From: Candidatus Methanomethylicaceae archaeon
GTDB lineage: Archaea; Thermoproteota; Methanomethylicia; Methanomethylicales; Methanomethylicaceae
Direction of reading: 5' to 3'
Assembly: GCA_026414165.1 (NCBI GenBank)
Contig: JAOAJN010000003.1
Location: 68,172-132,171 of the forward strand
DNA length: 64,000 nucleotides
How positions within the stretch are numbered: the first letter of the stretch is position 1; every line of letters begins with the position of its first letter. The translations under genes were made by a program, and so were the position numbers. Shown here one piece after another: positions 544 to 31,452 of the stretch. The notes below the pieces were generated by a model. The model was not told the origin of the DNA and searched no databases. It worked only from the letters and a program-made list of their open reading frames with translations.

Positions 544-1548
544 ATGGTGGTTAGGCGTTTACAAAGAGTTGGGACATCTACATTTACTGTAGCACTCCCC
601 AAGGAATGGATAGAAGCTAGAGGGCTCGGAGCAAAATCTGAGGTCGACGTTCAAGTACTGGATGACGGAAATCTCCGGATATCAACGATCAATTCGGAAA
701 AAAGAAAGGAAAGGGAGATCCTAATAAAAGAAAAAGAAAAAGATGCAGGATTTCTAATCAGAAAGATAATGGCAGCATATATCGCAGGTTATGATATAAT
801 AAAATTAGACCTTTCTGAACTTGAGCCAGATTTTGAAGTAAGAGAAAAGTTACGGAAAATTATAAAAAATAAAATGGCTGGCGGAGAGATCGTAGACGAG
901 TCCATAAATAGCATAACTATACAAGTAATACTTAGACCTTATGAATATCCGTTGAACAAGATCTTGATAAGAATGACTTCAATGGTCCAAAATATGATTC
1001 TAGATATCTGTAAAGCCATTACATCAAAAAATAAAAATATTTTATTGGATATAATCGAGAGGGACGATGATGTAGATAAATTGTACTTTATGGGAAGCAG
1101 ATGGCTTTCAAGTATCATAGAGGATAAGCTTTCAGCCCTCGACTATGACATCAAATCAAGCAGAGAGGTGTTGGAGTACAGGATAATATTCAGACATGTA
1201 GAAAGGGTTGCGGATCATGTCTGCAAGATCGCGACAATACTATTAGATTTGATTGATAATATTGACAATAGTTCTGCAATTGTTATCAAAGAATTACTCG
1301 AAAAAGCGGGAGCCATTTTTGTTAAGGCGGTGAATTGCATCAAAAGCAATAATCTTTTAGATGCGAATAAAGTGATACATGATGCGAGATTAATAGTTAA
1401 ATCGGGCGAGGAGGCCTTAGATAAGCTTAGCATTAATTTTTCTAAAGAGAACCTTGGAACTGCAGCAGTCATATTGGATAGCATAAAAAGGATTGCTGAG
1501 TATGGCATAGGTATATCTGAAATAGTATTTAATATAGGCATAAATTAG
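544..1548 (+). CDS. phoU: PhoU-family phosphate uptake regulator with an N-terminal AbrB/SpoVT DNA-binding domain
   Basis: The N-terminus VVRRLQRVGTSTFTVALPKEWIEARGL is a SpoVT/AbrB fold motif. It is followed by two PhoU-like helical repeats (ERDDDVDKLY..., FRHVERVADHVCKIA, LDSIKRIAEYGIGISE). The gene is divergent from pstS. The ORF track starts at TTG 535, but ATG 544 preceded by GAGG is more likely. Confidence 0.8.
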   Translation: MVVRRLQRVGTSTFTVALPKEWIEARGLGAKSEVDVQVLDDGNLRISTINSEKRKEREILIKEKEKDAGFLIRKIMAAYIAGYDIIKLDLSELEPDFEVREKLRKIIKNKMAGGEIVDESINSITIQVILRPYEYPLNKILIRMTSMVQNMILDICKAITSKNKNILLDIIERDDDVDKLYFMGSRWLSSIIEDKLSALDYDIKSSREVLEYRIIFRHVERVADHVCKIATILLDLIDNIDNSSAIVIKELLEKAGAIFVKAVNCIKSNNLLDANKVIHDARLIVKSGEEALDKLSINFSKENLGTAAVILDSIKRIAEYGIGISEIVFNIGIN

Positions 1549-1552
1549 ACCT

Positions 1553-1873
1553 ATGAGAGAGGATGGTTTAAAAATAAGGATCAAAAATAATTTGACTGGG
1601 ATTAATATGCATTATGAAGACGATAAAATTCATAAAAATGAAAATAAGGGCTTCTTTATGCCCTTGCCCGCAGGGACTCCGTATTCAATATTAGCAGAGG
1701 CAACACATAGATTTAATGTAGAGCTCGCGGAGAAGCCCATAAAAGCACCTGTCCCTATTGAGGAAGGAGTGCTTCCAATGGCTTGGGTGCTGATCGGCGA
1801 TAGGGAGGAGTTGATGAAGGCAAAGGCATTCATATGTGAAAAATTGAAAGAGACTTTAAAGAAGTTTGAATAA
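1553..1873 (+). CDS. Hypothetical protein (106 aa)
   Basis: An ORF with normal composition, 4 nt after the phoU-like stop. I recognise no family. Confidence 0.4.
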   Translation: MREDGLKIRIKNNLTGINMHYEDDKIHKNENKGFFMPLPAGTPYSILAEATHRFNVELAEKPIKAPVPIEEGVLPMAWVLIGDREELMKAKAFICEKLKETLKKFE

Positions 1874-2047
1874 ATAATAATTTTTAAACGATAAACGCCA
1901 AAGGTTTTGCTAATTATAAGGTAAAGGTAAAAATTGTATGACTATTAAAATAGAAGTAAAGAAGATTCTTATAGACTTGAAACAGGTGGGGGGCGGCAGG
2001 GCAAAAAGCGGATATTTTACACGCTAAATCAGAGTGATTTTATTGTT

Positions 2048-2542
2048 TTAATTTTCATTTATTTTCCGAATTTCACTAAGGGAGGAGAGAAATTTTCTTA
2101 TTTTAGACACCATGATCCTTGCATCCTCTTCTGTGGAGGGATAAGGCACTTTAATGAAGGGTATGTTGCGCTGTTTAATGAGGTATAGGAGAAATTCGTT
2201 AGTCCTTCCACAGCTGGCACACCCAAAGAGTGCCTCTGGTTCCTCAACAATGATAGCAGCATCCGCCTCCTCAACAAGAGGGCCTATAAGTGCTAGCCTT
2301 CCTCTAACGCCTGAAGGGACCTCTATTGCAGCATATTTGAGACCTCTTCTTGGGAAGTCGGGGGTAATATTCATCGGTGGTGAGTCTATCTCAGGCCTGT
2401 TTACATTCTTTGCAACCTCTTCTCCCAGTCCCAAAGGAGTATGACCTTCTCTTTTAACCAAGTCAAAGAGAATTAGGCTGTTAGGTGGAAATATGAATAT
2501 TTTTGCCAATTTGACTTCACCTTTTTTCTCTTTCTCCCTCAA
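2048..2542 (-). CDS. mmp5: Methanogenesis marker protein 5 (Mmp5)
   Basis: KIFIFPPNSLILFDLVKREGH...EIDSPPMNITPDFPRRGLKYAAIEVPSGVRGRLALIGPLVEEADAAII...FGCASCGRTNE matches my memory of the Mmp5 family. A TTG at 2509 (MAKIFIF..., GGTGA 8 nt upstream) is a plausible alternative start that removes the overlap with mcrC. Confidence 0.75.
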   Translation of the reverse strand: MREKEKKGEVKLAKIFIFPPNSLILFDLVKREGHTPLGLGEEVAKNVNRPEIDSPPMNITPDFPRRGLKYAAIEVPSGVRGRLALIGPLVEEADAAIIVEEPEALFGCASCGRTNEFLLYLIKQRNIPFIKVPYPSTEEDARIMVSKIRKFLSSLSEIRKINEN

Positions 2543-3158
2543 ACTTGCTCAGCCAGAATTTTACCTTTATCACTATTTCGTTGAGTTTGTCACGTGGTGC
2601 GCTGACGCCCCTCACTACGCCTGTCACAATGTCAACAATGGTTCCTAGGCATTCAACCTTCTCTGGAGGGGGACGCACCAAGCGAGTGATGATCCCAACT
2701 TTAGCAAAATCCTCATAGTCCACAGGTGCTTCACAGACTATAATAGTGGGTATGTCAACATAGCGCAGGAAGGTTTTCGCTTTATAGACCACATGACCTC
2801 CTATGCCGCCCAGGTGGAAGAGGGCGAGCTTGTATCTCCTTATCTGGAGTACTTCCTTCTCGTTAATTCCAGCCATTGTTCCACCTGGCGCGCCCCCGTA
2901 TGGTGAGTCTGAAGGCACCCCTGATCCAGACTCAAGAACCAAGACGCTCGTCCTAATACCTTGCTCTCTTAGACCATAAGTTATTTCGCAGATGGGCTTT
3001 GTGATGTGTCTTTTGGACGGGGACATTGCAACTGCGACAACATCAAAGCGCTCCGACTCTGAGATCGTTCCACGCTGGGCTAGTCCACCACCCTCTCCTA
3101 TGCCCTGAGCTTCCCGGCAATCCACGATCTGCGAGCTCCTACCAATAGTTTCTTCCAA
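2517..3158 (-). CDS. mcrC: Methyl-coenzyme M reductase operon protein C (McrC)
   Basis: IGRSSQIVDCREAQGIGEGGGLAQRGT...AVAMSPSKRHITKPICEIT...HLGG...VCEAPVDYEDFAKVG...GTIVDIVTGVVRG is collinear with McrC as I remember it. It has a TTG start with GGAGA upstream. Confidence 0.9.
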   Translation of the reverse strand: MEETIGRSSQIVDCREAQGIGEGGGLAQRGTISESERFDVVAVAMSPSKRHITKPICEITYGLREQGIRTSVLVLESGSGVPSDSPYGGAPGGTMAGINEKEVLQIRRYKLALFHLGGIGGHVVYKAKTFLRYVDIPTIIVCEAPVDYEDFAKVGIITRLVRPPPEKVECLGTIVDIVTGVVRGVSAPRDKLNEIVIKVKFWLSKFEGEREKR

Positions 3159-3177: not shown

Positions 3178-3495
3178 TTACACCTTTCCCCTTAGGTAGT
3201 CTTTCACAGTAGGTCTTGGTTTAGTGAAGCGCCCTATCCTAACGTCATAGCCATACGGCATAACCTGTTCACATAGAGGTCGGATCTTATCAATAACAGT
3301 TTCTGGCGAGTGTTCAGACAATAAAAGAATGAACCTTCCAACCATATATCCTCCTCCTGAGTAGTTGTGCTTTTGGAAGAGGACGTCTAAGATCATTCCG
3401 GTGTCCTTTAACAGTGTGGCGAAATCCTCAGCTTTTTTGCTTGGCATTAGCCGCCTGGGCAAGATCTCAATTTCAGGCTTGTCTTTGGCTTCCAA
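3178..3495 (-). CDS. mcrD: Short McrD-like protein (105 aa)
   Basis: The N-terminus PEIEILPRRLMPSKKAEDFATLL and the C-terminus VGRFILLL...IDKIRPLCEQVMPYGYDVRIGRFTKPRPTVKDYL resemble the conserved ends of McrD. The protein is about one third shorter than typical McrD. It lies directly upstream of mcrC. Confidence 0.6.
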   Translation of the reverse strand: MEAKDKPEIEILPRRLMPSKKAEDFATLLKDTGMILDVLFQKHNYSGGGYMVGRFILLLSEHSPETVIDKIRPLCEQVMPYGYDVRIGRFTKPRPTVKDYLRGKV

Positions 3496-3722: not shown

Positions 3723-5243
3723 TTGAAGGTGATGGTTGACGGTACCGAAATGGAAGCACGGGAAGATGAAAATCTGGGAGATTTCTTGGATAGAGTTGGT
3801 ATAATCATCAAAGAGGGCTACATAGTTGCAGTCAAGAGAAAAATAGACGTGGAGAGTATACCTACAAACCTTTATGAAGTTCACACAACACGGGGTAAGA
3901 TGATAATAAGATGGGAGTGTGATGATGAGTTAGAAAAGTGGAGGCGAACCTACAAGAGCTTTGAGGGGTGCGGTGTAAGGTGGGCAACCATTGATGCGGT
4001 TGTTTTTGGACCTACAAAAACGGAATTTGTTCCTTCCAAAGAAGAGGTGGAGTTACGAAGGTATGAAATTACGGTTAGTCTCTCAGGTTCCAGTAATGAG
4101 AGTTCGCACCTTGTATTCAGCAAGAGGACGCATAGTGCTCTCTACTTCCCGCCTAAAGGTTGTAGAGTCTTAGGGCGCGTAGTTTATGGTAGGCACCTGC
4201 TCGATGTCTTTAGAATAGGAGACAAGATAGTTAAGATTTCGCCAGTCTTTGAGAAAAAGTTTGATCCTAGATCCCTATTGCGCGTCGAAAAAGATTACAA
4301 GTTAAAAGAAGGCGACATGATATTTACAAAAATGGAGATATTGCTAGACACCCGTTCTCCTGTTTGTGTAGAACACGTATATAACATGCTCAGCGAAGGT
4401 TTTACGGTCACAAGAAAGACGAGTCGGTTTATTGCACATGATAAAGCCAGACTAATCTCCATAAAAAGCGAGGTTGTGGGAGAAAGGGACAGAGGGGTTA
4501 TTTCTGTAAGAAGTTCCGGAAACAATACTGGTTCAGTGTATATCTATCTTCAGAAGGCGGCAATTTCAAAAGATCATACTATCGCGGGGCGGGTTGTCAA
4601 CGGCATAGAGCTTGCCGATGTTGCCAGAGAAGGAGACTTAATACGAACAGTCCTCACCCCAGAGAGGCTGGATCTTCTCGGGAGGAGCCAAGGAGAAGTA
4701 AACAAGGTTTTGGAGAGGATTGGAATCAAGCATGTCAGGGAAGGTTATATCGATGATGATGGGATCGTAGTAGACCACTCACCAGCCACCACGATTGAGA
4801 TCTATAAGCAGGGGATCGTCAGGTGCACAGGTCTCCCCCACGATCAGATCTTGAAGGTTCGGTTATATGAAAATAGTGCGCCCATATCTGTAAAATACTT
4901 CAGGAGAGTTGCTGGCTTAGACCTAAGACGTGTTGGAAGGCTCGACGTATTCTTTTCAACAAAAGATGTGGTTCTATTCAAAGGTGACGAGAGTTTTGGA
5001 AAATCTTTGATGCCAGAGAATATTCCCAATGAAAAAGTCGGCGCAGGAGAAATAGGAGTTACAAATTCTGTCAAGAAATTCGCCGGAATGGTTGGGATAA
5101 GGTTGACGGAAAGTGATAAGTTTGGTCCGACGGCAGAAAGCTTTGACGGGACCAACATTGTTGGCAGAGTTTTGGAAAATATCGCTTTATTGAAAGGTCT
5201 ACGTGAGGGGAGAAGGGTCTACATTATGGAGGGGAGTCAATGA
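3723..5243 (+). CDS. mmp3: Methanogenesis marker protein 3 (Mmp3, UPF0288 family)
   Basis: A ~500-aa protein whose size, position and general sequence character fit Mmp3/UPF0288. It is the first gene of a tightly coupled mmp operon. The start is uncertain (TTG 3723, GTG 3729 or ATG 3732). Confidence 0.75.
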   Translation: MKVMVDGTEMEAREDENLGDFLDRVGIIIKEGYIVAVKRKIDVESIPTNLYEVHTTRGKMIIRWECDDELEKWRRTYKSFEGCGVRWATIDAVVFGPTKTEFVPSKEEVELRRYEITVSLSGSSNESSHLVFSKRTHSALYFPPKGCRVLGRVVYGRHLLDVFRIGDKIVKISPVFEKKFDPRSLLRVEKDYKLKEGDMIFTKMEILLDTRSPVCVEHVYNMLSEGFTVTRKTSRFIAHDKARLISIKSEVVGERDRGVISVRSSGNNTGSVYIYLQKAAISKDHTIAGRVVNGIELADVAREGDLIRTVLTPERLDLLGRSQGEVNKVLERIGIKHVREGYIDDDGIVVDHSPATTIEIYKQGIVRCTGLPHDQILKVRLYENSAPISVKYFRRVAGLDLRRVGRLDVFFSTKDVVLFKGDESFGKSLMPENIPNEKVGAGEIGVTNSVKKFAGMVGIRLTESDKFGPTAESFDGTNIVGRVLENIALLKGLREGRRVYIMEGSQ

Positions 5244-5659
5244 TAAAGACATTTGTGGTGATGCTCTCGCCAGACTCAAATTTGACGCCTTCCATGCTTA
5301 TGGAAAAGGTAGCGTCGATAGGTGGAGTAGATTACAAAGAGACTTGTTATGGGTTGCTAATAGAGGGTGAAGAGGAAAATTTGGAGAGAGCAATGAAGGC
5401 ATTGAGGGAGATGGATCCAAACAGAATATTCTTCAAGGTGAGGGGTTATAGGATTGGAGATGAGAGGATATGCCGGGCTAAGAGGGGAGGAGGACCAAGA
5501 CCAGGATATTTTATGTTGGGGGCGGAGAGGAAGGTCCTAAAGAATGTATCGAAGGCACTTGAGGCAGGGGGCATATTTGAGGTAAAAGAGAGAGAGCCCA
5601 AGAAGAAGTTGGATGTTTCAAGGTTGAAGAAGATAGTGGAGGAGGAAGGAGACAGCTAA
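5240..5659 (+). CDS. mmp6: Methanogenesis marker protein 6 (Mmp6)
   Basis: 139 aa, with an ATGA overlap onto mmp3. The KETCYGLLIEGEEE...DPNRIFF segment and the size fit Mmp6 as I remember it. Confidence 0.65.
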   Translation: MIKTFVVMLSPDSNLTPSMLMEKVASIGGVDYKETCYGLLIEGEEENLERAMKALREMDPNRIFFKVRGYRIGDERICRAKRGGGPRPGYFMLGAERKVLKNVSKALEAGGIFEVKEREPKKKLDVSRLKKIVEEEGDS

Positions 5660-5660
5660 T

Positions 5661-6212
5661 ATGAAGATAGCAGTAGTCTCTTCGGACATTAGAGGAGGGG
5701 AGATGTACAGACATATTATTGAGAGGAATGTGGAGGATATGGCGCTTGGAAGTAGCGTAACAGGGTTTGCAGTCATGATAAAGCCGGAGATCCCGCTCTT
5801 TGTAATCAAGGTCAGGTATAAGGAGCGTGAGAGCAAGAATAAGTTAGGGGAGCTGGCAAGGATTGAACCGAGATCTGGTAGCACAAGGGTCATCTTGGAG
5901 GATGAAATAGACTTGGGGGACGCGCTCAAAACTTTGTGGAGCACTTACGGAAGAGACAAAGTTGAGCAGTCTGGAAGGACGGAGATAGTGGTGAGGGGTG
6001 TAGAGCCAGAGAGTTTGAGGGAGCTCAGAATAAGGAAGGAGAGGGTCAGCGTGTCGGAGAAGATTAACGAGCTCGTGAATAGGGTCATACCTGAGGGGTT
6101 CAGAATTCGGTATGTGATAAGGGAAGGAGACTTGCTGACGGTCATCGCTGCAGAAGACCCAATCAAAGATGAGTGGAAGAAAATGGCGGCCGATTTGGTG
6201 GTGAACGATTAA
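5661..6212 (+). CDS. mmp17: Methanogenesis marker protein 17 (Mmp17), tentative
   Basis: 183 aa, starting 1 nt after the mmp6 stop and sitting between mmp6 and mmp7. The assignment rests on size and conserved cluster position rather than on a remembered motif. Confidence 0.55.
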   Translation: MKIAVVSSDIRGGEMYRHIIERNVEDMALGSSVTGFAVMIKPEIPLFVIKVRYKERESKNKLGELARIEPRSGSTRVILEDEIDLGDALKTLWSTYGRDKVEQSGRTEIVVRGVEPESLRELRIRKERVSVSEKINELVNRVIPEGFRIRYVIREGDLLTVIAAEDPIKDEWKKMAADLVVND

Positions 6213-7120
6213 TGTTAAAGTACGTCATCTTTGAAGGTGGGATGTATAAGCACGAACTTCTACTGGAGTTTGTAGACGATGTTGGAGGTTTTGTGATTCA
6301 AAAAACCGTGATCGGGCTGGACCTGATAATGAATTTGGCAGTCCCAGAGGAGGAGGTTGAGAGGTTACAAGAACTAGTTCAGGAGGTCAAGGGTAAGCTA
6401 AGAGATGCTCCGCTAATAGGGACAGAAGTTGCAGTTGTGGCACCTACGCTGTCAAGGCATCACCTTCCGCACCCAGCTTGCGATATAGCAGAGAACTTGA
6501 GAAGGCATGGTGCAAAGACCAACATAATGGGACTAGCTAGGGGGGTGGGGCAGAAGATAGTACATACATCAATACAGGAAAGGCAGCTTATAGAGGAACA
6601 CGACTTGGCAGTTTTTACGCTTGGTAACTTTGAGCATTGTTTGAGGAGGTTCAAGCCAAAGTTGTTCAAGGACCTATCCATACCAGTTATAGTAACGGGC
6701 GGACCACTTGAGCTAGAAGTGGAGGGGGCGAACGGTTATGTCGGAGGAATAGGAAGGTACCCGGAGAGGGCGAGGACTATGGATATGATAGAGAGATTGA
6801 GGAAAGTCTCAGAGCTCGCAGGCAAACTGATCGAGGAAAGACGAAGGGAGATGGATTTAGATCCATTAATTATAGAGCCCGCACTGGTGAAGAGTGAGGT
6901 TGAGAGACAAGTACCAGAGGTTTTGGACGCGCTCTCGCCAACCCCTGTGACTTTGAAGGTTGACGGTGTTAGGATAAAGTTGCCATATGATGAGTATAAA
7001 GAAAAAGTTGCCTCCGTGGTTGTTGAAGGAAAAAAGCTTAATGAAGTTTCCCGCATAACAAGATCTCAGATGAGGGATTATATACTTGTTAAGATCCTTT
7101 CTGAGTCTTATTTCTCCTGA
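6212..7120 (+). CDS. mmp7: Methanogenesis marker protein 7 (Mmp7)
   Basis: MLKYVIFEGGMYKHELLLEFVDDVGGFVIQK resembles the Mmp7 N-terminus. The ATG at 6212 overlaps the mmp17 TAA (TAATG). The ORF-track start at 6173 is probably an artefactual extension. Confidence 0.7.
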   Translation: MLKYVIFEGGMYKHELLLEFVDDVGGFVIQKTVIGLDLIMNLAVPEEEVERLQELVQEVKGKLRDAPLIGTEVAVVAPTLSRHHLPHPACDIAENLRRHGAKTNIMGLARGVGQKIVHTSIQERQLIEEHDLAVFTLGNFEHCLRRFKPKLFKDLSIPVIVTGGPLELEVEGANGYVGGIGRYPERARTMDMIERLRKVSELAGKLIEERRREMDLDPLIIEPALVKSEVERQVPEVLDALSPTPVTLKVDGVRIKLPYDEYKEKVASVVVEGKKLNEVSRITRSQMRDYILVKILSESYFS

Positions 7121-7194
7121 GTTTTTGCGTTGTGATGAAATAATTTATAGAGCAGAGTTTTGAGATATTGTGATTTCAGTAAAGCTCCATTCTG
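7121..7194 (+). promoter_or_regulatory. Possible internal promoter for the A2-like / RACo-like / orf184 sub-operon
   Basis: This is the only sizeable gap in the plus-strand cluster. It contains TAATTTATAG (7141-7150) about 45-55 nt upstream of the next start. Confidence 0.35.
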
Positions 7195-8877
7195 GTGATA
7201 CTATTGTTGCTTCTGTGTGATCGGATTAGCAAGAGCTTTTCAGGGTTTAAGGTGCTCGACTCTGTCTCTTTCCAAATCAATAGGTGTGAGATCGTGGGAA
7301 TTTTGGGGGAGAGTGGGGCTGGCAAAACAACATTATTGAGAATTCTGAGGGGTGTTGAGGGGTTCGACAGTGGGAGGATAGTCTTCGAGGATCTTGAAGT
7401 CAATGCAGAATCCCCAAAGGAGTCTTTTCTGGAGCTTCAAAGGAGGACGGCGATACAGCTCCAGAGAACCTTTGGTCTGTGGCCAGATTCTGTTGTGGAC
7501 AACGTGGTGAGGGCACTTGTTTACCAAGATCTCGGGGATGAGGTAGTTCCACAGGACGAAGGGGAATATGAAGAGTACAGGGCAAGGGCAATGGAAGTCT
7601 TAAAGGTTGTGGGACTAGATGGTAGGGCAGATCTTTGGTCTGGAGTCCTCAGTGGTGGTGAGAAACAGAGGTTGATTGTGGCAAGGCAAATAGCCAGAAG
7701 ACCGAAACTCCTGCTGCTTGACGAGCCAGGAACCATGACGGATTTCCAGAGTAGAGCAGCATTGATTGATGCTCTGAAGAGGGCGAGGGACGAGTACCAG
7801 ATGAGCGTCCTCTTCGTTTCACATAATCCAGCCATTCATAAATCCTTGGCAGACAGGGTCATACTCCTAGAGAAGGGAAAAGTCTCAATGGAGGGGGGAG
7901 CCAGAAACGTTGTAGAAAGCTTTCTCTCCAGACTCGAAGAGCCCCTACGTAAGACAAAGATCCCTGGAGAGGATGTTCTCAGAACTGAAAAAACAAGCAA
8001 GGTGTACAAACTTGTTCCATATGGCAAGGTCTTCGAGTTAACTGAGACTACACTAAGTTTTAGATCAGGAGAGATTACGGGCATTGTGGGACCCTCTGGT
8101 GCGGGTAAGACAGTTATAATGAGGATGTTGGCAGGTCTAGAGTTGCCGGACTCTGGAGAGGTCAAGATCTTTTACAGGGGGGAATGGGTACCGCTCGGGA
8201 AGTTTGGTAGGAAGAGTCTCAGAGCAAGGCGGAGGATAGGGATACTCCATCAGGAGTTCGATCTCCCCTATTGGTCAAGTGTGCTGGAGCTTTTTGCTGC
8301 GCGTCTCGGAATAAAGGACTATAGATCGCTTGAGGAGGCGGTCCGCAGGGCCGAGAGGAAAGGGATCAGCGATGCAGTTGTTGATGTTTTAGGAAGGCTT
8401 GCTGAATTGCCAGAAGGGGAGATGGAGATAAAACTCAAAGAGGCAGGGCTAGATAAGAGTCTCCTGAAGGAGATCTTCAAAGAAAAAGATCCTGAGATGG
8501 CAAGGGAGCTGGCCGTGAAGATCCTTGGATGGTTTGGTATAAGCGATGACGTCCTCAACAAAAAGACTCACCAACTCTCTGGCGGGGAAAAGATCAGGAT
8601 AGCATTGGCACTTTCCCTAGTATCAAATCCCAAAGTCTTGATATTAGACGAACCCTTTGGAGACCTAGACCCCTTAACCCTCAGGAGAGTTGCAAACCTC
8701 CTAAAGATGATAAAGGTCTGGTTCAAGCCAGCTATAATACTGGTTAGTCATCAGTTGGAATTTGTGGAGGAAGTTGCCGACAGATGCATATTGATCAGGG
8801 AAGGTAAGGTTATAATGGATGGGGAGCCCAAAGATGTTATAAATGGGTTCTTGGGTGAGGGGGAGCATGGAGTTTGA
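7195..8877 (+). CDS. A2-like double ABC ATPase (paralogue of MCR component A2, lacking the zinc-ribbon insert)
   Basis: It has two ABC cassettes: GESGAGKTT...LSGGEKQR...LLLDEP and GPSGAGKTV...LSGGEKIR...LILDEP. It shares the A2-type segment TAIQLQRTFGLWP with atwA at 23131 (compare [13 protein letters not shown]). The start is uncertain (GTG 7195 or TTG 7204/7207). Confidence 0.75.
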   Translation: MILLLLLCDRISKSFSGFKVLDSVSFQINRCEIVGILGESGAGKTTLLRILRGVEGFDSGRIVFEDLEVNAESPKESFLELQRRTAIQLQRTFGLWPDSVVDNVVRALVYQDLGDEVVPQDEGEYEEYRARAMEVLKVVGLDGRADLWSGVLSGGEKQRLIVARQIARRPKLLLLDEPGTMTDFQSRAALIDALKRARDEYQMSVLFVSHNPAIHKSLADRVILLEKGKVSMEGGARNVVESFLSRLEEPLRKTKIPGEDVLRTEKTSKVYKLVPYGKVFELTETTLSFRSGEITGIVGPSGAGKTVIMRMLAGLELPDSGEVKIFYRGEWVPLGKFGRKSLRARRRIGILHQEFDLPYWSSVLELFAARLGIKDYRSLEEAVRRAERKGISDAVVDVLGRLAELPEGEMEIKLKEAGLDKSLLKEIFKEKDPEMARELAVKILGWFGISDDVLNKKTHQLSGGEKIRIALALSLVSNPKVLILDEPFGDLDPLTLRRVANLLKMIKVWFKPAIILVSHQLEFVEEVADRCILIREGKVIMDGEPKDVINGFLGEGEHGV

Positions 8878-10768
8878 AGTGAAGTTTTTGCCTGAAGGGA
8901 AGAGGATTTCAGTTCCGGCAGGATCCACGGTCATGTCTGCAGCACTAAGGGCAGGCGTTGATTTGGCGAATATCTGTGGTGGAAAGGGTTTCTGTGGCAA
9001 ATGTTTGGTTGAAGTCCTGGACGGTAACGTTCCGCCGCCCACCGACCAAGAGAGGAAGAGGGTTGGCGAGGAGAAGATTAAAAAAGGCTACCGTTTGGCT
9101 TGCCAACTAACCGTCCAGGAGGACGTGACAGTACAGGTGCCAGAGCAAAGTAGGGTCGGTAGGCAGAGACTTGTTATAATGGGCAAGGAGCCGCCAGTCG
9201 CCTTAAACCCGAATGTCAAGAAGGTCTATGTAGAGGTTGCACCACCCTCCCTTCACGATCCTGAGGGGGACGATGTCAGGATAGCCAAGGTACTTGCAGC
9301 AATGGGGCTTGATCCAGTTCTGATAGATTATGAGATCATAAAGAAGATGCCAAAGATCCTTAGGGACGGCGGGTGGAAGGTCACCTTTACCATATTGAAT
9401 AACCGCGAGATTGTGAATGTACAGCCAGAGGACAGAACCAAAGAGCTCTACGGGGTCGCGGTGGACATAGGTACAACCAAGCTTGCTGTCTTTATAGTGG
9501 ATTTATTGGATGGGGGGATCATATTCGCGGAGGGTATAATGAACCCTCAGATAAGATACGGAGAAGATGTAATCTCCAGGATAGGTTATGCTTCTCAGTC
9601 TGATGAGAATCTCAAGGAAGTTCAGAAGGCTATAATTGATGGGATTAATTCACTCATCCAAAGGGGGTTAGAGGAAACAGGGATTAAAGAGGAAGACCTC
9701 TATGAACTCGTTGCTGTGGGGAATACGGCGATGCACCACCTCTTCTTGGGACTTGATGTTAAATGGTTAGGGTTTTCACCCTATCCGCCAGTGGTTGGGA
9801 GGGCATACAACGTTAGAGCTAAGGATTTGGGCATCAGAATAAACCTCGCAGGCAACATTCACATGCTGCCAAACGTTGCAGGTTTTGTCGGGGCCGATGC
9901 GATAGCGGATATTTTGGCATCGAGAATACATGAAAAAGATAGGCTAATACTGCTTATGGATGTGGGGACAAATACTGAGGTAGTATTGGGATGCAGGGAA
10001 GGGCTTTGGTCATGCTCAACCGCATCTGGTCCAGCATTCGAGGGGGCGCACATAAAATGCGGAATGAGAGCCGCAAGTGGTGCCATAGAGAAGGTCAAGA
10101 TAGGGGATGATTTCGAGGTGGAATATGGAACCGTAGATGGGGAGAAAGCCAGAGGGATCTGTGGATCCGGGATAATAGACGCTGTTGCCGAGATGTTAAG
10201 GACTGGAGCAATAGATATGTCAGGGAAGATAGTGCTTCAGGGGCATAAGAGGGTCAGGGACGGAATAGACGGCAAGGAGTTCATTTTAGTGTTTAAAGAG
10301 GAGACAGCATCCGGAAGAGAAGACATAGTAATAACCCAAGAGGATATCAGAGAGGTACAGAAGGCCAAGGCTGCAATGTATGCTGGATACATGACGCTCA
10401 TGAGGAAGAGCGGTTTTAGGAGAGAAGAACTTTCGGAGATAATAATAGCAGGCGCTTTCGGAAATTATATAGATCCAGAGAACGCCAGAATAATAGGAAT
10501 GATACCAGAACTGCAAATATCCAAGATCTCATTTTTGGGAAATACGGCTGGATCTGGTGCAAGGATGTGCCTCAAATCTACAGATGTCAGGCGCGAGGCA
10601 GAGTCTATCGCAAAGGCTATTAAGTATGTTGAGCTTGCAGCCGAACCTATCTTCGAGGAGGAGTATGTTAATGCTATGTACATGCCAAACAGTAAACTGG
10701 AAGATTTTCCTGAAGTCACAGCCAGCGTTAAGGCACCGAGGGTGGTGAGAAGATATGTCAGAAGATAA
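8867..10768 (+). CDS. RACo/DUF4445-type reductive activase: N-terminal plant-type [2Fe-2S] ferredoxin domain fused to an ASKHA ATPase
   Basis: The ferredoxin motif is CGGKGFCGKC...LACQ. The ASKHA motifs are VAVDIGTTKLAV, VGNTAMHHLFLGL and LMDVGTNTEVV. The ATG at 8867 (MEFEVKFLPEGK) overlaps the upstream stop by 11 nt. The ORF track starts at 8843. Confidence 0.8.
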   Translation: MEFEVKFLPEGKRISVPAGSTVMSAALRAGVDLANICGGKGFCGKCLVEVLDGNVPPPTDQERKRVGEEKIKKGYRLACQLTVQEDVTVQVPEQSRVGRQRLVIMGKEPPVALNPNVKKVYVEVAPPSLHDPEGDDVRIAKVLAAMGLDPVLIDYEIIKKMPKILRDGGWKVTFTILNNREIVNVQPEDRTKELYGVAVDIGTTKLAVFIVDLLDGGIIFAEGIMNPQIRYGEDVISRIGYASQSDENLKEVQKAIIDGINSLIQRGLEETGIKEEDLYELVAVGNTAMHHLFLGLDVKWLGFSPYPPVVGRAYNVRAKDLGIRINLAGNIHMLPNVAGFVGADAIADILASRIHEKDRLILLMDVGTNTEVVLGCREGLWSCSTASGPAFEGAHIKCGMRAASGAIEKVKIGDDFEVEYGTVDGEKARGICGSGIIDAVAEMLRTGAIDMSGKIVLQGHKRVRDGIDGKEFILVFKEETASGREDIVITQEDIREVQKAKAAMYAGYMTLMRKSGFRREELSEIIIAGAFGNYIDPENARIIGMIPELQISKISFLGNTAGSGARMCLKSTDVRREAESIAKAIKYVELAAEPIFEEEYVNAMYMPNSKLEDFPEVTASVKAPRVVRRYVRR

Positions 10769-11309
10769 TGTTATAGAAAATTTGATGAGGCTGAAGGGGA
10801 TTATAAAGGTCGTACCTTTGACTCAGGAGGATCGGGCTGAGATCGAAAGGCTTGAGAGGGAGGCAGAAGGGAAGGTCTTGATGGGTCTATGTAAAGGCAT
10901 GAATTTAGGGGTCAGGGAGGCCCTTAGAAAGAAGACCGTTTACGCATGCATAACAAACGCAAGCCTCAGATGGCCAAAGACATCGCTTGTAAAGATAGTC
11001 TGTGGCGAGGAGACCATTGGCGAGGACAAATATGACGAGAATGAGTTGGAAAGGCTAAAAAGTGAGGGGAACCTCGTTGTGGGAAACATCGTCTTCTATA
11101 AAGATAAGATACGCCTGATGAGGGAGAATATTGATAAGATAAGCTTACTTATGCTCCCCCTAAAAATACCTGAGTTAGAGGGGCTGGGGATGGTTATAGG
11201 AAGCCCCTCTCCCCCTGCAGATTTGTATTTAAAGAAGAAGTTAGGGGCCTCGGAAGATGATCCAAATATTGGGACGGTAATTGTCGGCGTGGGAGGGGAT
11301 CAAGGGTAA
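10755..11309 (+). CDS. Hypothetical protein (184 aa), translationally coupled to the RACo-like gene
   Basis: A 14-nt overlap with the preceding gene and normal composition. I recognise no family. Confidence 0.5.
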   Translation: MSEDNVIENLMRLKGIIKVVPLTQEDRAEIERLEREAEGKVLMGLCKGMNLGVREALRKKTVYACITNASLRWPKTSLVKIVCGEETIGEDKYDENELERLKSEGNLVVGNIVFYKDKIRLMRENIDKISLLMLPLKIPELEGLGMVIGSPSPPADLYLKKKLGASEDDPNIGTVIVGVGGDQG

Positions 11310-11419
11310 AAACCCGGAGCCGATAGCCTTCACCTTTTTAGAAGAATGAGGGCAGATAAAATTTATTGAGAGTAACCATATATATGCGTTTTTGCATATA
11401 AATGTACAGGGAATTTTGT

Positions 11420-11923
11420 ATGTGGAAAGAGATAGAGAAATTCTTCTCTGGTGCCCCAGCTAAGCTTAAGGTGGCAAGGCTGATGGTTGAGCTCGGGTTT
11501 GGTATAAATGAGAAAGGGAAAGTGGTCTGCGGTAACGTAGAGATAGCAGACACCAGCATAGCAAAGGCAGTTAATGTTGACAGGAGAGTTGTCAGAGAGG
11601 CGGTAAAGGACATTTTGGGCGACATTAGAATGAGGAGAATTTTTTCTGGGCTGAGGCCTGCAGGTAGTTTTTTAAAGGATATAGCACCAGACCTGGGCTA
11701 CAGCGTTGTTGAGATCAGGGCGCGTCCAGACGCAGTCGGGGTGATAGCAAAGGCAACCAGTTATATAGCGGAGGCAGGAGTAAGCATCAGGCAGATTTTG
11801 GCGGAGGATCCAGATCTGAACCCAGATCCGAAATTGCTGATAATAACCGAGAGGCAGATCCCTGGAGAAGTTGTTTCCAAGCTTTTGACAATACCCACAG
11901 TCACTAAGGTGAGTCTGAGCTAA
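11420..11923 (+). CDS. ACT-domain regulator of amino-acid metabolism (COG2150-like)
   Basis: MWKEIEKFFSGAPAKLKVARLMVELG... with a C-terminal ACT-like segment VVEIRARPDAVGVIAKATSYIAEAGVSIRQI. The element GCATATAAATG at ~11390-11400 sits about 25 nt before ATG 11420, suggesting a leaderless transcript. The ORF track starts at 11402. Confidence 0.6.
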   Translation: MWKEIEKFFSGAPAKLKVARLMVELGFGINEKGKVVCGNVEIADTSIAKAVNVDRRVVREAVKDILGDIRMRRIFSGLRPAGSFLKDIAPDLGYSVVEIRARPDAVGVIAKATSYIAEAGVSIRQILAEDPDLNPDPKLLIITERQIPGEVVSKLLTIPTVTKVSLS

Positions 11924-13439: not shown

Positions 13440-14135
13440 TTATTGGTTTAGGGCGATCGCAAAGTCCTTCAAGATCTTTTCGGGGTCCTTTGCCTTTACA
13501 ACACCTGATGCTACCAAGACCCCCTCGGAGCCTAGCTCTATCGCCCTCAAAACATCCATACCGTCTGTTATGCCAGCCCCACAGAGCACATGTGTCGTGG
13601 AACTTACGGACTTTATCATCTCGACTGAAGATCTTATAACTTCGGGCTTGGCTTTAGATACGGAAATACCGCTTCCTATGAGCTCTGGCGGCTCTATTGC
13701 AACCATGTCAGGATTTAGGATCGATAATGCCTTGCCTATTAGAGAGGTATTGGCGCATACGCATGTTAGAAGCCCTAATTCTCTGCTCCTTTTTATGGAA
13801 TCTTCGATAATATCGGCTCTAAGGCGGCGTTCTGAATGGTTCAACAAAGTGCCACATGCCCCCGCTTCCTTAATTGATTCCGGAGAAATATGCCCAGTGT
13901 GGGATCCTGCGGGTTCTGGGTCTAAATGCTGGGAGAAAACGGGGATTGAAACTTCGCTTGCTATCCTAGGAATATCTACAAATTGTGGTGCCACGACCAT
14001 GCAGACCCCATACTCCTTAGAAATTCTTTCAACGGTCTTCGCGAGGAGAAGACCTCTATTTCCAAGAGACTCTAGATAAGTCTTGTAGTTTATCAGAACG
14101 AGCGGATACGCGACCTTCACTTGTTTCACCGTCAA
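13440..14135 (-). CDS. tpiA: Triosephosphate isomerase (archaeal short type)
   Basis: LINYKTY...GTLLNHSERRL...AIEPPELIGSG...CGAGI, at the archaeal TIM length (~230 aa). Confidence 0.9.
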   Translation of the reverse strand: MTVKQVKVAYPLVLINYKTYLESLGNRGLLLAKTVERISKEYGVCMVVAPQFVDIPRIASEVSIPVFSQHLDPEPAGSHTGHISPESIKEAGACGTLLNHSERRLRADIIEDSIKRSRELGLLTCVCANTSLIGKALSILNPDMVAIEPPELIGSGISVSKAKPEVIRSSVEMIKSVSSTTHVLCGAGITDGMDVLRAIELGSEGVLVASGVVKAKDPEKILKDFAIALNQ

Positions 14136-14217
14136 TCTATTAGAGAGAAGGATAATATTAGCCTGTGGATTTTCGGCATCAATGGCTTAGCATTTACTGG
14201 CAGTTTCAGCTTATTGT

Positions 14218-14496
14218 TCACTTATTTTTTACTGATTCGAAATTTTCGGTGGACTCTTTCTTCTCGGGTTCTTTAAACTCGGGCAACTCGTCGAGTGGCT
14301 TAGGAGGAGGGGTTGTAGCCATGGTGTAGCCAATCCATCCAGCGATGCCAAGCACTGCTAGAACCCCGATAAGTACAGGAATTACTATTGCCCACCAGCT
14401 ATATGGGGAGAAGAAGAGCCAGTAAATATAAACAATTATCAGGACCATTGATACTGTGAGTATCCCAGCACCCATCATCTGGTCTTTTGTGGCCAT
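14218..14496 (-). CDS. Small two-helix membrane protein
   Basis: Two hydrophobic helices followed by a Pro/Glu/Lys-rich tail. Family unknown. Confidence 0.45.
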   Translation of the reverse strand: MATKDQMMGAGILTVSMVLIIVYIYWLFFSPYSWWAIVIPVLIGVLAVLGIAGWIGYTMATTPPPKPLDELPEFKEPEKKESTENFESVKNK

Positions 14497-19805: not shown

Positions 19806-21062
19806 ATGAAGATGGCAAGAAGAGTCAGAATCGCGCAGATCTCCTGTGGAACTGAGTATAGCGGCATACAAAATGAGATTGAAAAAGCTGCAGAAATGGT
19901 TGGAGGTAAGATCTTTATCCCAGAGATCGACCTCGCCGATATAAGATCAATTGAGGATGAGTTGGGATTTCATGTTGCAAGTCCAGGTCTAAAGGTGATG
20001 ATGGCTAGGGCAAAAGCGGTCGTTGAAGGTAGGGTTGAGGCGGACGGAGTATTCATAGCTACGTGCTTCAAATGTGCGGAGGGGGCACTCACCCGTAGTA
20101 TAATCAGAAGATATATCCAGAGCAGGACCAAGATCCCTGTTGTGACTTACTCATTCACGGAGAGGACCAAGGCTGGCGCTCTGCTGTTGAGGATGGAGGC
20201 CCTTGTAAGCATAATCGGAAAGAAGCCGCTCTTCGCCAGAACCAAACAGGAGGGACTGACCGCCGGAATCGACTCAGGTTCCACCACAACAAAGGCAGTG
20301 ATAATGAAGGACGACGAGATAATCGGCTCAGGGTGGATCCCTACAACGAGCGTATTAGAGAGCGGACAGTTAGCGCTAAATATGGCACTTAAAGAGGCAA
20401 AAGTCAGCTTGGAAAGTTTGGAGGCCGTAGGAGTGACGGGCTATGGTAGAATGATCCTAAAGGAGGCATATAAGGCCAAGCTTGCAATGGAAGAGGTCTC
20501 CACATGTTCAAAGGGAGCGTTATACCTTTGCGATAGACAAAAAGGAGATGCAACTGTAATAGACATAGGAGGAATGGACAATAAGGCGGTTACCCTGTAC
20601 GACAGCATACCGGACAGCTTTACTGTGGGAGGGGTCTGTGCAGGTGCATCTGGCAGATTTATAGAGACCAGTGCAAAGAGGCTGGGCGTCTCTCTTGAAG
20701 AGTTTGGGGATCTCGCATTAAAAGGGGATTACAGAAAAGTCCCCATGAATGCCTATTGCATAGTATTCGGACTTCAGGATCTGGTCGCAGGTCTTGCCAG
20801 CGGAGCAAAGGTCGAGGACGTTGCTGCGGCGGCATGTCACAGCGTTGCGGAACAGGTCTTTGAACAACAGCTTCAGGAGATAGACATCAGATATCCGATA
20901 GTGCAGGTCGGATCCACAGCGCTCATAAAGGGGCTCGTCAAAGCCATGTCAGAGATTTTGAGTGTGGATGTGATCGTGCCAGAAAGACCAAACCTCATAG
21001 GCGCAGTCGGTGTAGCAGTTATGGTATCTGGTATGAAGGAACTTGAAGAGGAGGGAAGATGA
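19806..21062 (+). CDS. mmp15: Methanogenesis marker protein 15 (Mmp15; BadF/BcrA/HgdC-type ASKHA ATPase)
   Basis: [14 protein letters not shown]...VTGYGR...[10 protein letters not shown]...[10 protein letters not shown] are BcrAD/BadFG motifs. They follow a ~150-aa N-terminal extension. The ~410-aa size fits Mmp15. Confidence 0.75.
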
Positions 21063-21174
21063 TCTCGCCAGACAGTCGAATAAATTTTTAGGCGAGGGTT
21101 CAGAGGACATTCTGGATATTTATAGATTGGAAAACTTTGCTCAGGGACTAATATACTGATGACGGTGTGATTCC

Positions 21175-22383
21175 ATGAGACTACGCTCCATAAAAAAGCT
21201 ATACAAAGAGGGGACCCATCGAGCCAAGCCTCTCATGGAGACTTTAGAGTTTTTGGAAAAAATCTACGGTAAGGCGGGAATAACTAGGGTGGCTGATATA
21301 ACTGGATTGGACAGGATAGGCATACCAGTTTTTACTGCAATGCGACCCCTTGCATCAGAAGGAGCCATAACCGTATACACGGGCAAGGGTCATGTTCCAG
21401 AGGAAGCAAAAATCTCGGCAATAATGGAAGGAATAGAGAGGTTCTCAGGAGAGCCCAGAGAATTTAGCTCCATAAAGGGCAGCTATGAATCGTTATCAGA
21501 GTCGTATCGCATTCTCGATCCTTTTACACTTAATCTACCGAAGCTCAGGCATTATTCTCATAGAGAAAATCTTGAATGGGTATACGGGCACTCGCTGATT
21601 ATTAGGGAAGAAGTTCTAGTTCCGGCGGAGGCAGTGTTCCATCCTTATAGGAGGGAAAACCAGCTATTCAGAACCAATACCAACGGGCTTGCAGTAGGGA
21701 ATGTGATAGAGGAGGCCATTCTGCACGGGCTCTTGGAGGTTATAGAAAGAGATGCCTGGTCTCTATTTGAATTGGGAGTCACTAAGGGGAGAGATTTGCA
21801 GATCGAGGGTTGTGGCTTGGCAGAGAAGCTTATTAAAAGATTCAGGGAGGCTTCGGTGCAAGTTTACATCAAAGATATAACATCAGACATCGGGATACCC
21901 ACGATATCGGTAGCGATAGATGATGAAATGACCAAAGATCCAGCTCTCCTTTCGCTTGGTGTTGGGACCCACCTCGTGCCAGAGATCGCTCTGGTTAGGG
22001 CGCTGACGGAGGCTGCTCAGAGCAGGCTTACAACAATCCATGGAACTAGGGAGGATACCTACAAGGCGGTTTTTGCGAGGAGGATAGGTTACGAGCGGAT
22101 GAAGAGGTTGAATAAAAAGTGGTTTGAGGAGTCTAGTGAGCGGGCGAATATATCCGAACTCAGAGGCTTTGATAGCGATGATTTGCTAGAGGATATAAAC
22201 TACATCATCAAGAAGCTTAAGGAGACTGGTTTGAACGAGGTCATAGTTGTGGATTTGACGAGAAACGAAGTGAAAATACCAGCGGTACGCGTCATAGTCC
22301 CGGGTTTGGAAGTTTACGCACTGGATAAGGACAGGGCAGGTGCCAGGGCGCTTCAAAAGATCAAAGAACAAAGATCAAAATGA
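21175..22383 (+). CDS. ycaO: YcaO (methanogenesis marker 1), McrA thioglycine-forming ATP-dependent enzyme
   Basis: GITRVADITGLDRIGIPVF...GKGHVPEEAKISAIMEGIERFSGE...TNGLAVGN are YcaO-family motifs. The gene is followed directly by tfuA. Confidence 0.9.
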   Translation: MRLRSIKKLYKEGTHRAKPLMETLEFLEKIYGKAGITRVADITGLDRIGIPVFTAMRPLASEGAITVYTGKGHVPEEAKISAIMEGIERFSGEPREFSSIKGSYESLSESYRILDPFTLNLPKLRHYSHRENLEWVYGHSLIIREEVLVPAEAVFHPYRRENQLFRTNTNGLAVGNVIEEAILHGLLEVIERDAWSLFELGVTKGRDLQIEGCGLAEKLIKRFREASVQVYIKDITSDIGIPTISVAIDDEMTKDPALLSLGVGTHLVPEIALVRALTEAAQSRLTTIHGTREDTYKAVFARRIGYERMKRLNKKWFEESSERANISELRGFDSDDLLEDINYIIKKLKETGLNEVIVVDLTRNEVKIPAVRVIVPGLEVYALDKDRAGARALQKIKEQRSK

Positions 22384-22399
22384 AAAGTTAAAGTTGTAA

Positions 22400-23083
22400 A
22401 TGCAAAAAGTTGTGAAGAAAGTTATGAAAGTTGTTGTCTTTTTAGGACCGAGTCTGCCTTTAGAAGAGGCAAAAAAGATTTTGGACTATGCCGACTACAG
22501 ACCGCCTGCTGGGAGGGGGGATGTGGCAGGAGTTGCCGATGAGGGGTTCGGAATAATAGGCCTTGTGGATGGAGTTTTCTACCAGAAAACAGCAGTTTCA
22601 CATCGTGAGATCCTTTATGCCCTTAAAAAAGGGGTTAAAGTTGTCGGCGGATCTAGCATAGGGGCTCTAAGGGCATGCGAGTTGGATGTCTACGGCATGA
22701 TCGGGGTCGGGAAGATTTATAGATGGTATAGAGAGGGCATAATTAGTGCCGATGACGAGGTCGCAGTTGCATTCCATCCGAATACATACCAACCACTATC
22801 CGAGCCTTTGGTCAATATAAGAGCCACTTTGGAGGTTCTGATCTCAAGAGGCATGATCAGCGAGGATGATAGAAGAATCATAATTGAGAGTGCTAAGGAG
22901 ATTCCGTTTCACCTTAGAAATTACAGCAGGATAATTCAGAAGGCCATAGACAAGCTAGGCAGAGACAGAGCAAGAGGACTCCTAGAATTATTAAGGATGG
23001 AGAGGGTCGATCAAAAACGGATAGATGCAATAGAAGTTTTGAACAAGGTTAAGGAATTGGCAGCAATTGATACAAGTGTATGA
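22400..23083 (+). CDS. tfuA: TfuA-like partner of YcaO
   Basis: VVVFLGPSL...YRPPAGRGDV...GLVDGVF...SHREILYAL..GV.VVGGSSIGALRA is the TfuA signature. An alternative start lies at 22424. Confidence 0.85.
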   Translation: MQKVVKKVMKVVVFLGPSLPLEEAKKILDYADYRPPAGRGDVAGVADEGFGIIGLVDGVFYQKTAVSHREILYALKKGVKVVGGSSIGALRACELDVYGMIGVGKIYRWYREGIISADDEVAVAFHPNTYQPLSEPLVNIRATLEVLISRGMISEDDRRIIIESAKEIPFHLRNYSRIIQKAIDKLGRDRARGLLELLRMERVDQKRIDAIEVLNKVKELAAIDTSV

Positions 23084-23130
23084 CTTAAATATCACATCTC
23101 ATTAATAATCGTGTTCTTTGGTGCACGGCA

Positions 23131-29174: not shown

Positions 29175-29185
29175 TACAAATCCTC

Positions 29186-29962: not shown

Positions 29963-29963
29963 T

Positions 29964-31298: not shown

Positions 31299-31452
31299 AA
31301 AACTCCTCTCTGTAGATTTCTTAGGTGAGAATAGATAACTGGAGGTTAAAAATCTTGCCCTCAATCCTGAAATTAAAATAAATTGTATTAAAGTGATTTT
31401 AAGAGTTTATATTTTTATTTTTTATTAATTATTAATAGAAAACATTTATAGA
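31299..31452 (-). promoter_or_regulatory. mcrBGA promoter and 5'-UTR region
   Basis: A 154-nt, very AT-rich spacer. The minus-strand reading begins TCTATAAATG, followed by ATTAAT-A-ATTAAT (31424-31436) and AAAATAAAAATATAAAC. It ends with a strong GAGGAG ribosome-binding site. Confidence 0.5.

Follow-up and report, generated by a model that had tools for sequence, protein, structure and literature searches.

The window analyzed here is a 64,000-nucleotide stretch of contig JAOAJN010000003.1 from a Candidatus Methanomethylicaceae archaeon. Three genes at positions 7121–11309 encode an ABC ATPase (hereafter A2h), a reductive activase of the RACo type and a 184-residue protein (orf184), and make up the 3' end of the plus-strand cluster mmp3-mmp6-mmp17-mmp7-A2h-RACo-orf184. 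This arrangement is a class-specific variant of the operon for activation of methyl-coenzyme M reductase (MCR) that has absorbed a corrinoid activase module. The reading preferred here, to which a probability of about 60% is given, is that of an operon fusion particular to the class Methanomethylicia by which MCR activation and the reactivation of corrinoid Co(I) are co-expressed; two repair systems have most likely been placed adjacent to each other rather than merged into one new machine. The original prediction, made from the letters of the window, had treated the three genes as a single new electron-injection module acting either on MCR or on corrinoid methyltransferases. The single module was not supported by comparison with other genomes, where the trio splits in two, into mmp/A2h and RACo/orf184, and of the two targets proposed the corrinoid methyltransferases are the better supported. 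The features of the cluster are as follows, the scores of the mmp genes being above the cutoffs of the respective NCBIfam models.

3723–5243, plus strand: mmp3 (TIGR03268, 494 bits)
5240–5659, plus strand: mmp6 (TIGR03272, 136 bits)
5661–6212, plus strand: mmp17 (TIGR03291, 117 bits)
6173–7120, plus strand: open reading frame (ORF) of mmp7, probable ATG at 6212 (TIGR03274, 399 bits)
7121–7203, plus strand: intergenic gap between mmp7 and A2h, with a TATA-like element and a Shine-Dalgarno-like site
7204–8877, plus strand: A2h, ABC ATPase, paralogue of MCR component A2
8867–10768, plus strand: RACo-type reductive activase with four Pfam domains
10755–11309, plus strand: orf184, from an archaeal family without annotation (~190 amino acids)

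The neighbourhood of A2h was surveyed in 80 genome loci, one per GTDB species, 64 of them outside Methanomethylicia. No RACo, RamA-type or methyltransferase-system gene was found within 10 kb of A2h in these 64 loci, with the sole exception of a URO-D gene 7 kb away in locus L027. In two TACK lineages (L027 and L036), mmp6-mmp7 is followed by A2h and then by mmp17 (reversed)-mmp3-A2, with no RACo, and in Nezhaarchaeota and MCR-encoding Bathyarchaeota A2h lies near or adjoining mcrD, also without RACo. Genes of the mmp set are found a few kb from A2h in the GoM-Arc1 loci L042 and L052, and A2h is located apart from them in Methanobacteriaceae, Methanocaldococcus, Archaeoglobi and most ANME loci. 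Judged by its neighbours, A2h behaves as one of the MCR/mmp genes. Conservation of the linkage across MCR-encoding genomes had been put forward as a check on the original prediction; RACo does stand beside A2h in all 28 Methanomethylicia loci described below, but near A2h in none of the 64 loci outside the class. Other small genes were seen in these neighbourhoods: an ORF just 5' of mmp6-mmp7-A2h in both TACK loci (L027:8093–8515 and L036:287–718) looks by eye like an FMN-binding protein of the pyridoxamine-phosphate-oxidase type, and in Methanobacteriaceae (L029 and ~40 others) a 183-residue protein (24 loci) and a 133-residue protein (40 loci), by eye flavin-reductase-like and a universal stress protein, respectively, are encoded 0.1–1.2 kb 3' of A2h.

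The orf184 family leads to the other half of the trio. Outside the mmp-linked Methanomethylicia loci, 11 distinct contexts of the family were collected. In seven of them a RACo or RamA gene lies within 2 kb (L092/093/113, L094, L095, L096, L112, L115 and L118), in most cases with MtaB, MtmB, MtaC or URO-D genes also nearby; two have corrinoid or methyltransferase genes only (L090/091 and L116/117), one has neither kind (L098), and the last is the exceptional, mmp-linked context of Methanonatronarchaeum (L097) taken up below. The family is therefore found beside RACo/RamA or corrinoid methyltransferase genes in nine of the 11. The association can be close: in L094 a bona fide RamA (724 bits on TIGR04270, cutoff 500) ends 12 nt 5' of the orf184-family gene, and in L116/117 a B12-binding protein is encoded 25 nt 3' of it. 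In the Wukongarchaeota contexts L090/091 the gene is accompanied by MtaB, MtaC and URO-D, with no RACo nearby. L112, on a contig labelled Verstraetearchaeota, has the order RACo-orf203-TrpY, and mmp genes and A2h are absent from the 6 kb upstream, which are occupied by Tpt1, MoaC, a MoCF-biosynthesis-domain gene, a PAPS-reductase and a Lon-like gene. No ABC ATPase gene adjoins the RACo/RamA-orf184 pairs elsewhere. Placement of RACo beside methyltransferase genes had been named as an outcome that would tell against the original prediction, and it is what the RACo/orf184 pair displays outside the class, though not inside it. Taken together, these contexts suggest that orf184 accompanies RACo and RamA, a partnership not noticed before, in which it may act as an adaptor or deliver electrons to the activases. 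A separate observation in L090/L091 is a 679-residue hydantoinase-type ASKHA ATPase (positions 1040–3079) that adjoins MtaB.

The identities given by the original prediction were upheld: the first gene encodes a paralogue of A2, the second a [2Fe-2S]-ASKHA activase of the RACo type, and the third had been left unassigned. For the first gene, the possibility that it is the real A2 was considered and rejected. A bona fide component A2 (AtwA) with a zinc ribbon, scoring 762 bits on TIGR03269 (cutoff 517), is encoded on the plus strand at 23131–24753, and the gene at 7204 is therefore a second, paralogous ATPase; the presence of the true A2 elsewhere in the window lends support to the preferred reading. 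A2h itself scores 333 bits on the same model, below the cutoff, and in pairwise alignment it is 33% identical to the true A2 of the window. It is a soluble tandem ABC ATPase with two ABC_tran stretches (Pfam), in which both nucleotide sites are canonical (GESGAGKT, LSGGEKQR and LLLLDEP in one; GPSGAGKT, LSGGEKIR and VLILDEP in the other). Its nearest solved structure is the A2 chain of 8S7V/9H1L (240 bits, the runner-up scoring 139), on which the true A2 scores 589 bits. Component A2 (PMC12176620) is likewise a soluble ATPase with two nucleotide-binding domains (NBDs) encoded together with mmp genes, but it carries a zinc-binding motif. In A2h a 28-residue gap stands in place of CKECGF...CPRCCG, so that the CxxC-x12-CxxC motif is missing, and NBD2 has an insertion of ~60 residues that is conserved in orthologues.

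These orthologues, 40–51% identical to A2h, are found in Nezhaarchaeota, MCR-encoding Bathyarchaeota, Archaeoglobi, Korarchaeum-labelled metagenome-assembled genomes (MAGs), Methanobacteriaceae, Methanocaldococcus, ANME-1 and GoM-Arc1. With both NBDs present and a separate orthologous group in archaea that encode MCR or alkyl-coenzyme M reductase (ACR), A2h is identified by sequence as a member of a known and widely conserved family of zinc-motif-less A2 paralogues. The "component A2 homolog lacking the ZBM", of the type of MA_3967 from M. acetivorans, has been described with both NBDs and without the zinc-binding motif (bioRxiv 10.64898/2026.03.18.712670), and A2h matches it by description rather than by alignment of the two sequences. 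The MCR activation operon of M. acetivorans comprises mmp5/6/17/7/3/15 and an A2-family ATPase (same preprint), and in the window mmp3, mmp6, mmp17 and mmp7 are likewise co-oriented with an A2-family gene. The two loci differ in that the true A2 is inside the operon of M. acetivorans and the homologue elsewhere, whereas here the homologue is inside and the true A2, together with mmp15, ycaO and tfuA, lies 12 kb downstream of the cluster; furthermore, neither RACo nor orf184 is reported in the M. acetivorans operon.

The second gene encodes, to judge from its sequence, a full-length RACo-type activase for which reduction of a Co(II) corrinoid is predicted. The motifs and the Fer2/DUF4445-type architecture noticed earlier were all recovered (CGGKGFCGKC...LACQ, DIGTTK, GNTAMHHL and DVGTNTE), in four Pfam domains: Fer2 (6.5e-14), RACo_linker (9.5e-22), Raco_middle (9e-56) and RACo_C_ter (2.8e-95). 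The protein aligns end to end with RACo of C. hydrogenoformans, the activator of the corrinoid iron-sulfur protein (CoFeSP) (3ZYY; complex 4C1N), with E 5.8e-128, residues 2–617 falling on chain positions 3–630 with no large insertion, deletion or domain change, and the cysteines of its [2Fe-2S] site (C-GGKGF-C-GK-C...LACQ) align with those of 3ZYY. The four-domain architecture, the C-x5-C-x2-C...C pattern and the ASKHA phosphate motifs are common to both proteins, and the chemistry, ATP-dependent reduction of Co(II) to Co(I), is presumed to be common as well. Unlike the gene of C. hydrogenoformans, that of the window is located in an mmp/A2h operon, overlaps an ABC ATPase gene and is followed by orf184. 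Homology to RamA is confined to the middle and ASKHA domains (153 bits on TIGR04270, below the cutoff of 500); RamA has C-terminal 2x[4Fe-4S] domains where the window protein has an N-terminal [2Fe-2S] domain instead, and a Pfam search for a Fer4 domain in the latter found none. The physiological job expected of both in a methylotrophic or methyl-reducing methanogen would nevertheless be the same. The nearest homologues outside Methanomethylicia, 50% identical, are in Bathyarchaeia, where they stand alone among housekeeping genes.

Assignment of the window protein as AcsV, the activase for CoFeSP of the Wood-Ljungdahl pathway, was rejected on two grounds: it scores 537 bits on the AcsV model NF040756, below the cutoff of 800, and its host class is reported to lack that pathway and to encode mtaA, mtmB, mtbC and mttC (bioRxiv 10.1101/2022.08.18.504445). 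On the second ground, the usual CoFeSP cannot serve this RACo as substrate.

For the third gene, no sequence match was found in Pfam, NCBIfam or the PDB, including a PDB profile search. Profile searches gathered a family of 168 cluster representatives of ~190 residues, whose sampled named members are all archaeal, from Methanomethylicia, Bathyarchaeia, Wukongarchaeota, Nitrososphaerales-labelled MAGs and Methanonatronarchaeum. Collections were scanned with a narrow alignment; broad alignments of the family have no conserved stretch, and no cysteine is conserved across the family. The AlphaFold2 model of orf184 (pLDDT 90.5) gave, with Foldseek against the PDB, sub-threshold matches to nitroreductase folds (IYD, the C-terminal domain of FbiB, and BluB; best E 0.02, TM 0.38), a resemblance that may serve as a weak lead.

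Both overlaps claimed for the trio were confirmed by the junction sequences. The ATG of RACo at 8867 lies inside A2h, whose TGA ends at 8877 (11 nt), and is preceded immediately by the purine-rich, Shine-Dalgarno-like run GGTGAGGGGGAG; the ATG of orf184 at 10755 lies inside RACo, whose TAA ends at 10768 (14 nt), with the similar run GGGTGGTGAG 5' of it. Conservation was followed within the class in 28 loci of Methanomethylicia, drawn from genomes and metagenomes, in which A2h and RACo are both present. RACo is directly 3' of A2h in all 28, and the order A2h-RACo-orf184 is kept throughout save for the absence of orf184 in two. The A2h-RACo junction is an 11-nt overlap in 20 loci, an 8-nt overlap in three, a spacing of +1 nt in three and of +50 nt in the deepest branch, whose RACo is 57% identical to that of the window; the RACo-orf184 junction is a 14-nt overlap in most loci. 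In the WYZ-LMO11 lineage of Methanomethylicota (L013/L014, ~13500–14400), orf184, TrpY and a trpB-like gene are missing after RACo and a convergent TIM gene follows directly, so that RACo is kept without its usual neighbour.

The gap upstream of A2h is more variable. It measures 72–75 nt in six loci of the window's genus, 0–17 nt in other genera and 48 nt in the deepest branch; L024 is frameshifted. With gaps of 0–17 nt, the seven genes from mmp3 to orf184 look like one operon in most of the class. The physical and translational coupling of the three genes is real and kept across Methanomethylicia, but the separate sub-operon envisaged in the original prediction is not a feature of the whole class. 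The neighbourhood of ~20 kb from HMG-CoA reductase to ThiN is itself syntenic across Methanomethylicia, which makes the conserved gene order weak evidence of a functional tie and undercuts any argument that such order proves functional coupling.

According to the preferred reading, co-transcription and the overlapping stop and start codons would co-express the systems that maintain two super-reduced centres, Ni(I) of F430 in MCR and Co(I) of corrinoid proteins. The mmp genes and A2h would serve activation of MCR, and RACo with orf184 would be the corrinoid reactivation system of the cell, these being two ATP-dependent systems of reductive repair that abut in one operon. The [2Fe-2S] domain of RACo would accept an electron from a low-potential donor, its ASKHA domain would bind a corrinoid protein of that pathway by which methyl groups are reduced (MtaC, MtmC or the like) in the Co(II) state, and ATP would enable the uphill reduction to Co(I), with orf184 acting as an accessory partner of RACo-type activases. 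No physical complex between the two modules would be required. Methanomethylicia (Verstraetearchaeota) are methyl-reducing methanogens; the window is placed among them by its RACo, which is 100% identical to a protein from a MAG of a 'Candidatus Methanomethyliaceae archaeon'. Reported to live by corrinoid methyltransferases and to lack the Wood-Ljungdahl pathway, they need a Co(I) reactivase, for which the RACo of the operon is the obvious candidate, and its co-expression with MCR activation is physiologically sensible because both systems spend ATP to restore a super-reduced metal centre.

Several observations weigh against this reading. The 64-kb window contains no homologue of MtaB, MtaC, MtmB, MttB or URO-D and no other gene for a methyltransferase or corrinoid protein, and none of the Methanomethylicia loci has such a gene within 10 kb of the cluster, which makes the link between RACo and corrinoid proteins an indirect one. 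Activases of this kind are usually, though not obligatorily, encoded near their substrates. More than co-expression could lie behind the 11-nt overlap of A2h and RACo, present in 20 of the 28 loci. Finally, the complete genome of the euryarchaeal methyl-reducer Methanonatronarchaeum sp. AMET-Sl (CP122958.1, L097:10001–14299) encodes a homologue of orf184 (190 residues, 41% identity over 172 residues) 15 nt 5' of Mmp3-Mmp6-Mmp5-Mmp15; an HdrD-like Fer4/CCG protein precedes it, and RACo is absent from the surrounding 10 kb on either side. Here the orf184 family has been joined to mmp genes a second time and independently, which a picture of two modules does not predict.

The Methanonatronarchaeum locus bears on the alternative that the trio, or RACo and orf184, has been recruited to MCR activation and delivers an ATP-driven electron into the McrC/Mmp7/Mmp3/Mmp17 complex or Ni-F430, perhaps docked on A2h. 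An orf184 homologue at the head of an mmp3 operon in an unrelated methyl-reducer would fit such a role, as would operon membership and the overlap with the stop codon of A2h across the whole class, and RACo never adjoins methyltransferase genes in Methanomethylicia. The authors of the structure of the activation complex also consider that lowering the redox barrier to the potential of F430 may call for additional A3a proteins (PMC12176620), which leaves the physiological electron supply to MCR open. Recruitment is all the same considered unlikely, given that none of the other MCR lineages sampled has RACo in the neighbourhood of A2h and the mmp genes, that elsewhere the RACo-orf184 pair accompanies methyltransferase genes and orf184 also accompanies RamA, that the window RACo shows no domain change relative to 3ZYY, and that synteny of the whole region in the class takes weight from the conserved order. 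To our knowledge, all characterized members of the family (RACo, RamA and the activating enzymes of O-demethylases) act on Co(II) corrinoids. A related idea, judged just as doubtful, is that orf184, together with RACo and possibly A2h, takes part in the ATP-driven reductive activation of corrinoid Co(I) and of MCR Ni(I) alike, as a component common to the two. RACo/orf184 would then feed low-potential electrons into the McrC/Mmp complex of methyl-reducers, or dock onto it, and the occurrence of orf184-family genes in mmp operons of the unrelated Methanomethylicia and Methanonatronarchaeum would be explained.

If, conversely, all three proteins formed one machine for corrinoid proteins, A2h would be no MCR factor at all; as a remodelling ATPase it would assist RACo and orf184 in reactivating the corrinoid proteins of methyltransferases. 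The conserved 11-nt overlap would suit this arrangement, and A2h has no assigned function, the preprint on A2 using such homologues as an outgroup only (bioRxiv 10.64898/2026.03.18.712670). It is, however, improbable in view of the A2h orthologues that lack nearby RACo or methyltransferase genes in Methanobacteriaceae, Methanocaldococcus, ANME-1 and Archaeoglobi, of the embedding of A2h among mmp genes in TACK lineages, of the MCR-binding A2 as its nearest characterized relative, and of the RACo/RamA-orf184 pairs that elsewhere have no adjoining ABC ATPase. Least probable of all, and very much so, is that RACo and orf184 serve a corrinoid enzyme of MCR maturation such as the cobalamin-dependent radical-SAM methylase of McrA (Mmp10 type), for which nothing but the location among MCR-related genes and a cobalamin requirement of Mmp10, reported in one paper (PMC11659888), can be adduced: gene lists of the window read by eye contained no mmp10-like gene, and RACo-orf184 pairs elsewhere accompany MtaB/MtmB/MtaC genes of catabolic type. 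We know of no RACo-type enzyme that acts on a radical-SAM B12 enzyme.

If the preferred and conventional reading is true, the outcome is a tidy annotation: a RamA-equivalent has been found for Methanomethylicia, and with it a new accessory family. The family of orf184 is a candidate for the missing partner of corrinoid reductive activases, so far studied as stand-alone enzymes, and methyl-reducing methanogens may co-regulate the repair of two super-reduced cofactors. Cultures now exist of Methanosuratincola strains that show this gene order, and these hypotheses are thereby open to experiment. As regards MCR, the structure of the activation complex defines McrC, Mmp7, Mmp17, Mmp3 and A2 (Nature 2025, PMC12176620), but how Ni(I) is maintained in vivo has been answered only in part, the physiological electron supply and extra A3a factors having been left open by that structure; found in mmp operons of several TACK methanogens, A2h is a candidate further MCR-activation factor. 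No description of the linkage was found in the literature searched, in agreement with the original prediction; an earlier mention in the work on cultured Methanosuratincola or in Borrel et al. 2019 is possible.

The gap between mmp7 and A2h is the sole sizeable junction on the plus strand, the remaining ones being overlaps or 1 nt, as had been noted; its end, formerly placed at 7194, is at 7203. The start of A2h is most likely TTG 7204 and not GTG 7195, because five close relatives have ATG at that column, because GGTGAT at 7194–7199, conserved in an alignment with these relatives, offers a Shine-Dalgarno site, and because NCBI calls a product of 557 residues. The TATA-like element GAAATAATTTATAG at ~7137–7150 is a possible internal archaeal promoter; the element GAAAT[A/G]AT[T/A]TATAG is kept in the five close relatives and restricted to the genus of the window. 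An Rfam scan of 6900–11600 matched no family. Around the cluster, the window contains the following features.

2048–2542, minus strand: mmp5 (TIGR03271, 209 bits)
2517–3158, minus strand: mcrC (TIGR03264, 287 bits)
3178–3495, minus strand: mcrD-like gene (44 bits only on the mcrD model, below the cutoff of 100)
11310–11401, plus strand: intergenic region at the operon end, with a T5 run at ~11335–11339 and an A+T-rich TATA-like sequence
11402–11923, plus strand: regulator of the TrpY family (NF053754, 195 bits, cutoff 180)
23131–24753, plus strand: component A2 (AtwA), described above
27504–31364, minus strand: mcrBGA, downstream in the same window

The mmp5, mcrC and mcrD-like genes are transcribed divergently from the cluster mmp3 to orf184. 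At the other end of the cluster, the T5 run and the TATA-like sequence of 11310–11401 suggest a putative terminator and a putative promoter of the TrpY gene, respectively.

A second cluster, at 19806–25650, contains mmp15, ycaO (for the thioglycine of McrA) and tfuA, with the true A2 3' of these three; an mmp2-like gene (250 bits against a cutoff of 365) lies there in convergent orientation. The mcrBGA operon lacks mcrC and mcrD, which are both 24 kb away adjoining mmp5. Directly 3' of mcrA, an ORF of 201 residues (26877–27482, minus strand) has no NCBIfam match. Two Nezhaarchaeota loci have a homologue next to mmp5, and a locus of MCR-encoding Bathyarchaeota has one near ycaO/A2 (39–42% identity; L026, L069, L028 set); the ORF may be an unrecognized MCR-associated marker. 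Another ORF, of 106 residues (1553–1873, plus strand), is kept adjoining mmp5/mcrC/mcrD in Methanomethylicia; loci of Nezhaarchaeota and Bathyarchaeota have it near mcrD, and Pfam labels its relatives, weakly, as MJ0093 (PF27275). A 258-residue ORF (26058–26834, plus strand) located between the mmp2-like gene and the mcr operon is a stand-alone soluble fragment, whose only match is to the phosphorylation/HAD portion of heavy-metal P-type ATPases (61 bits, well short of the cutoff). Finally, an ABC importer at 57019–59879 (minus strand), consisting of ATPase, permease and substrate-binding protein and by eye of the BtuCDF or iron-siderophore type, could bear on corrinoid supply.

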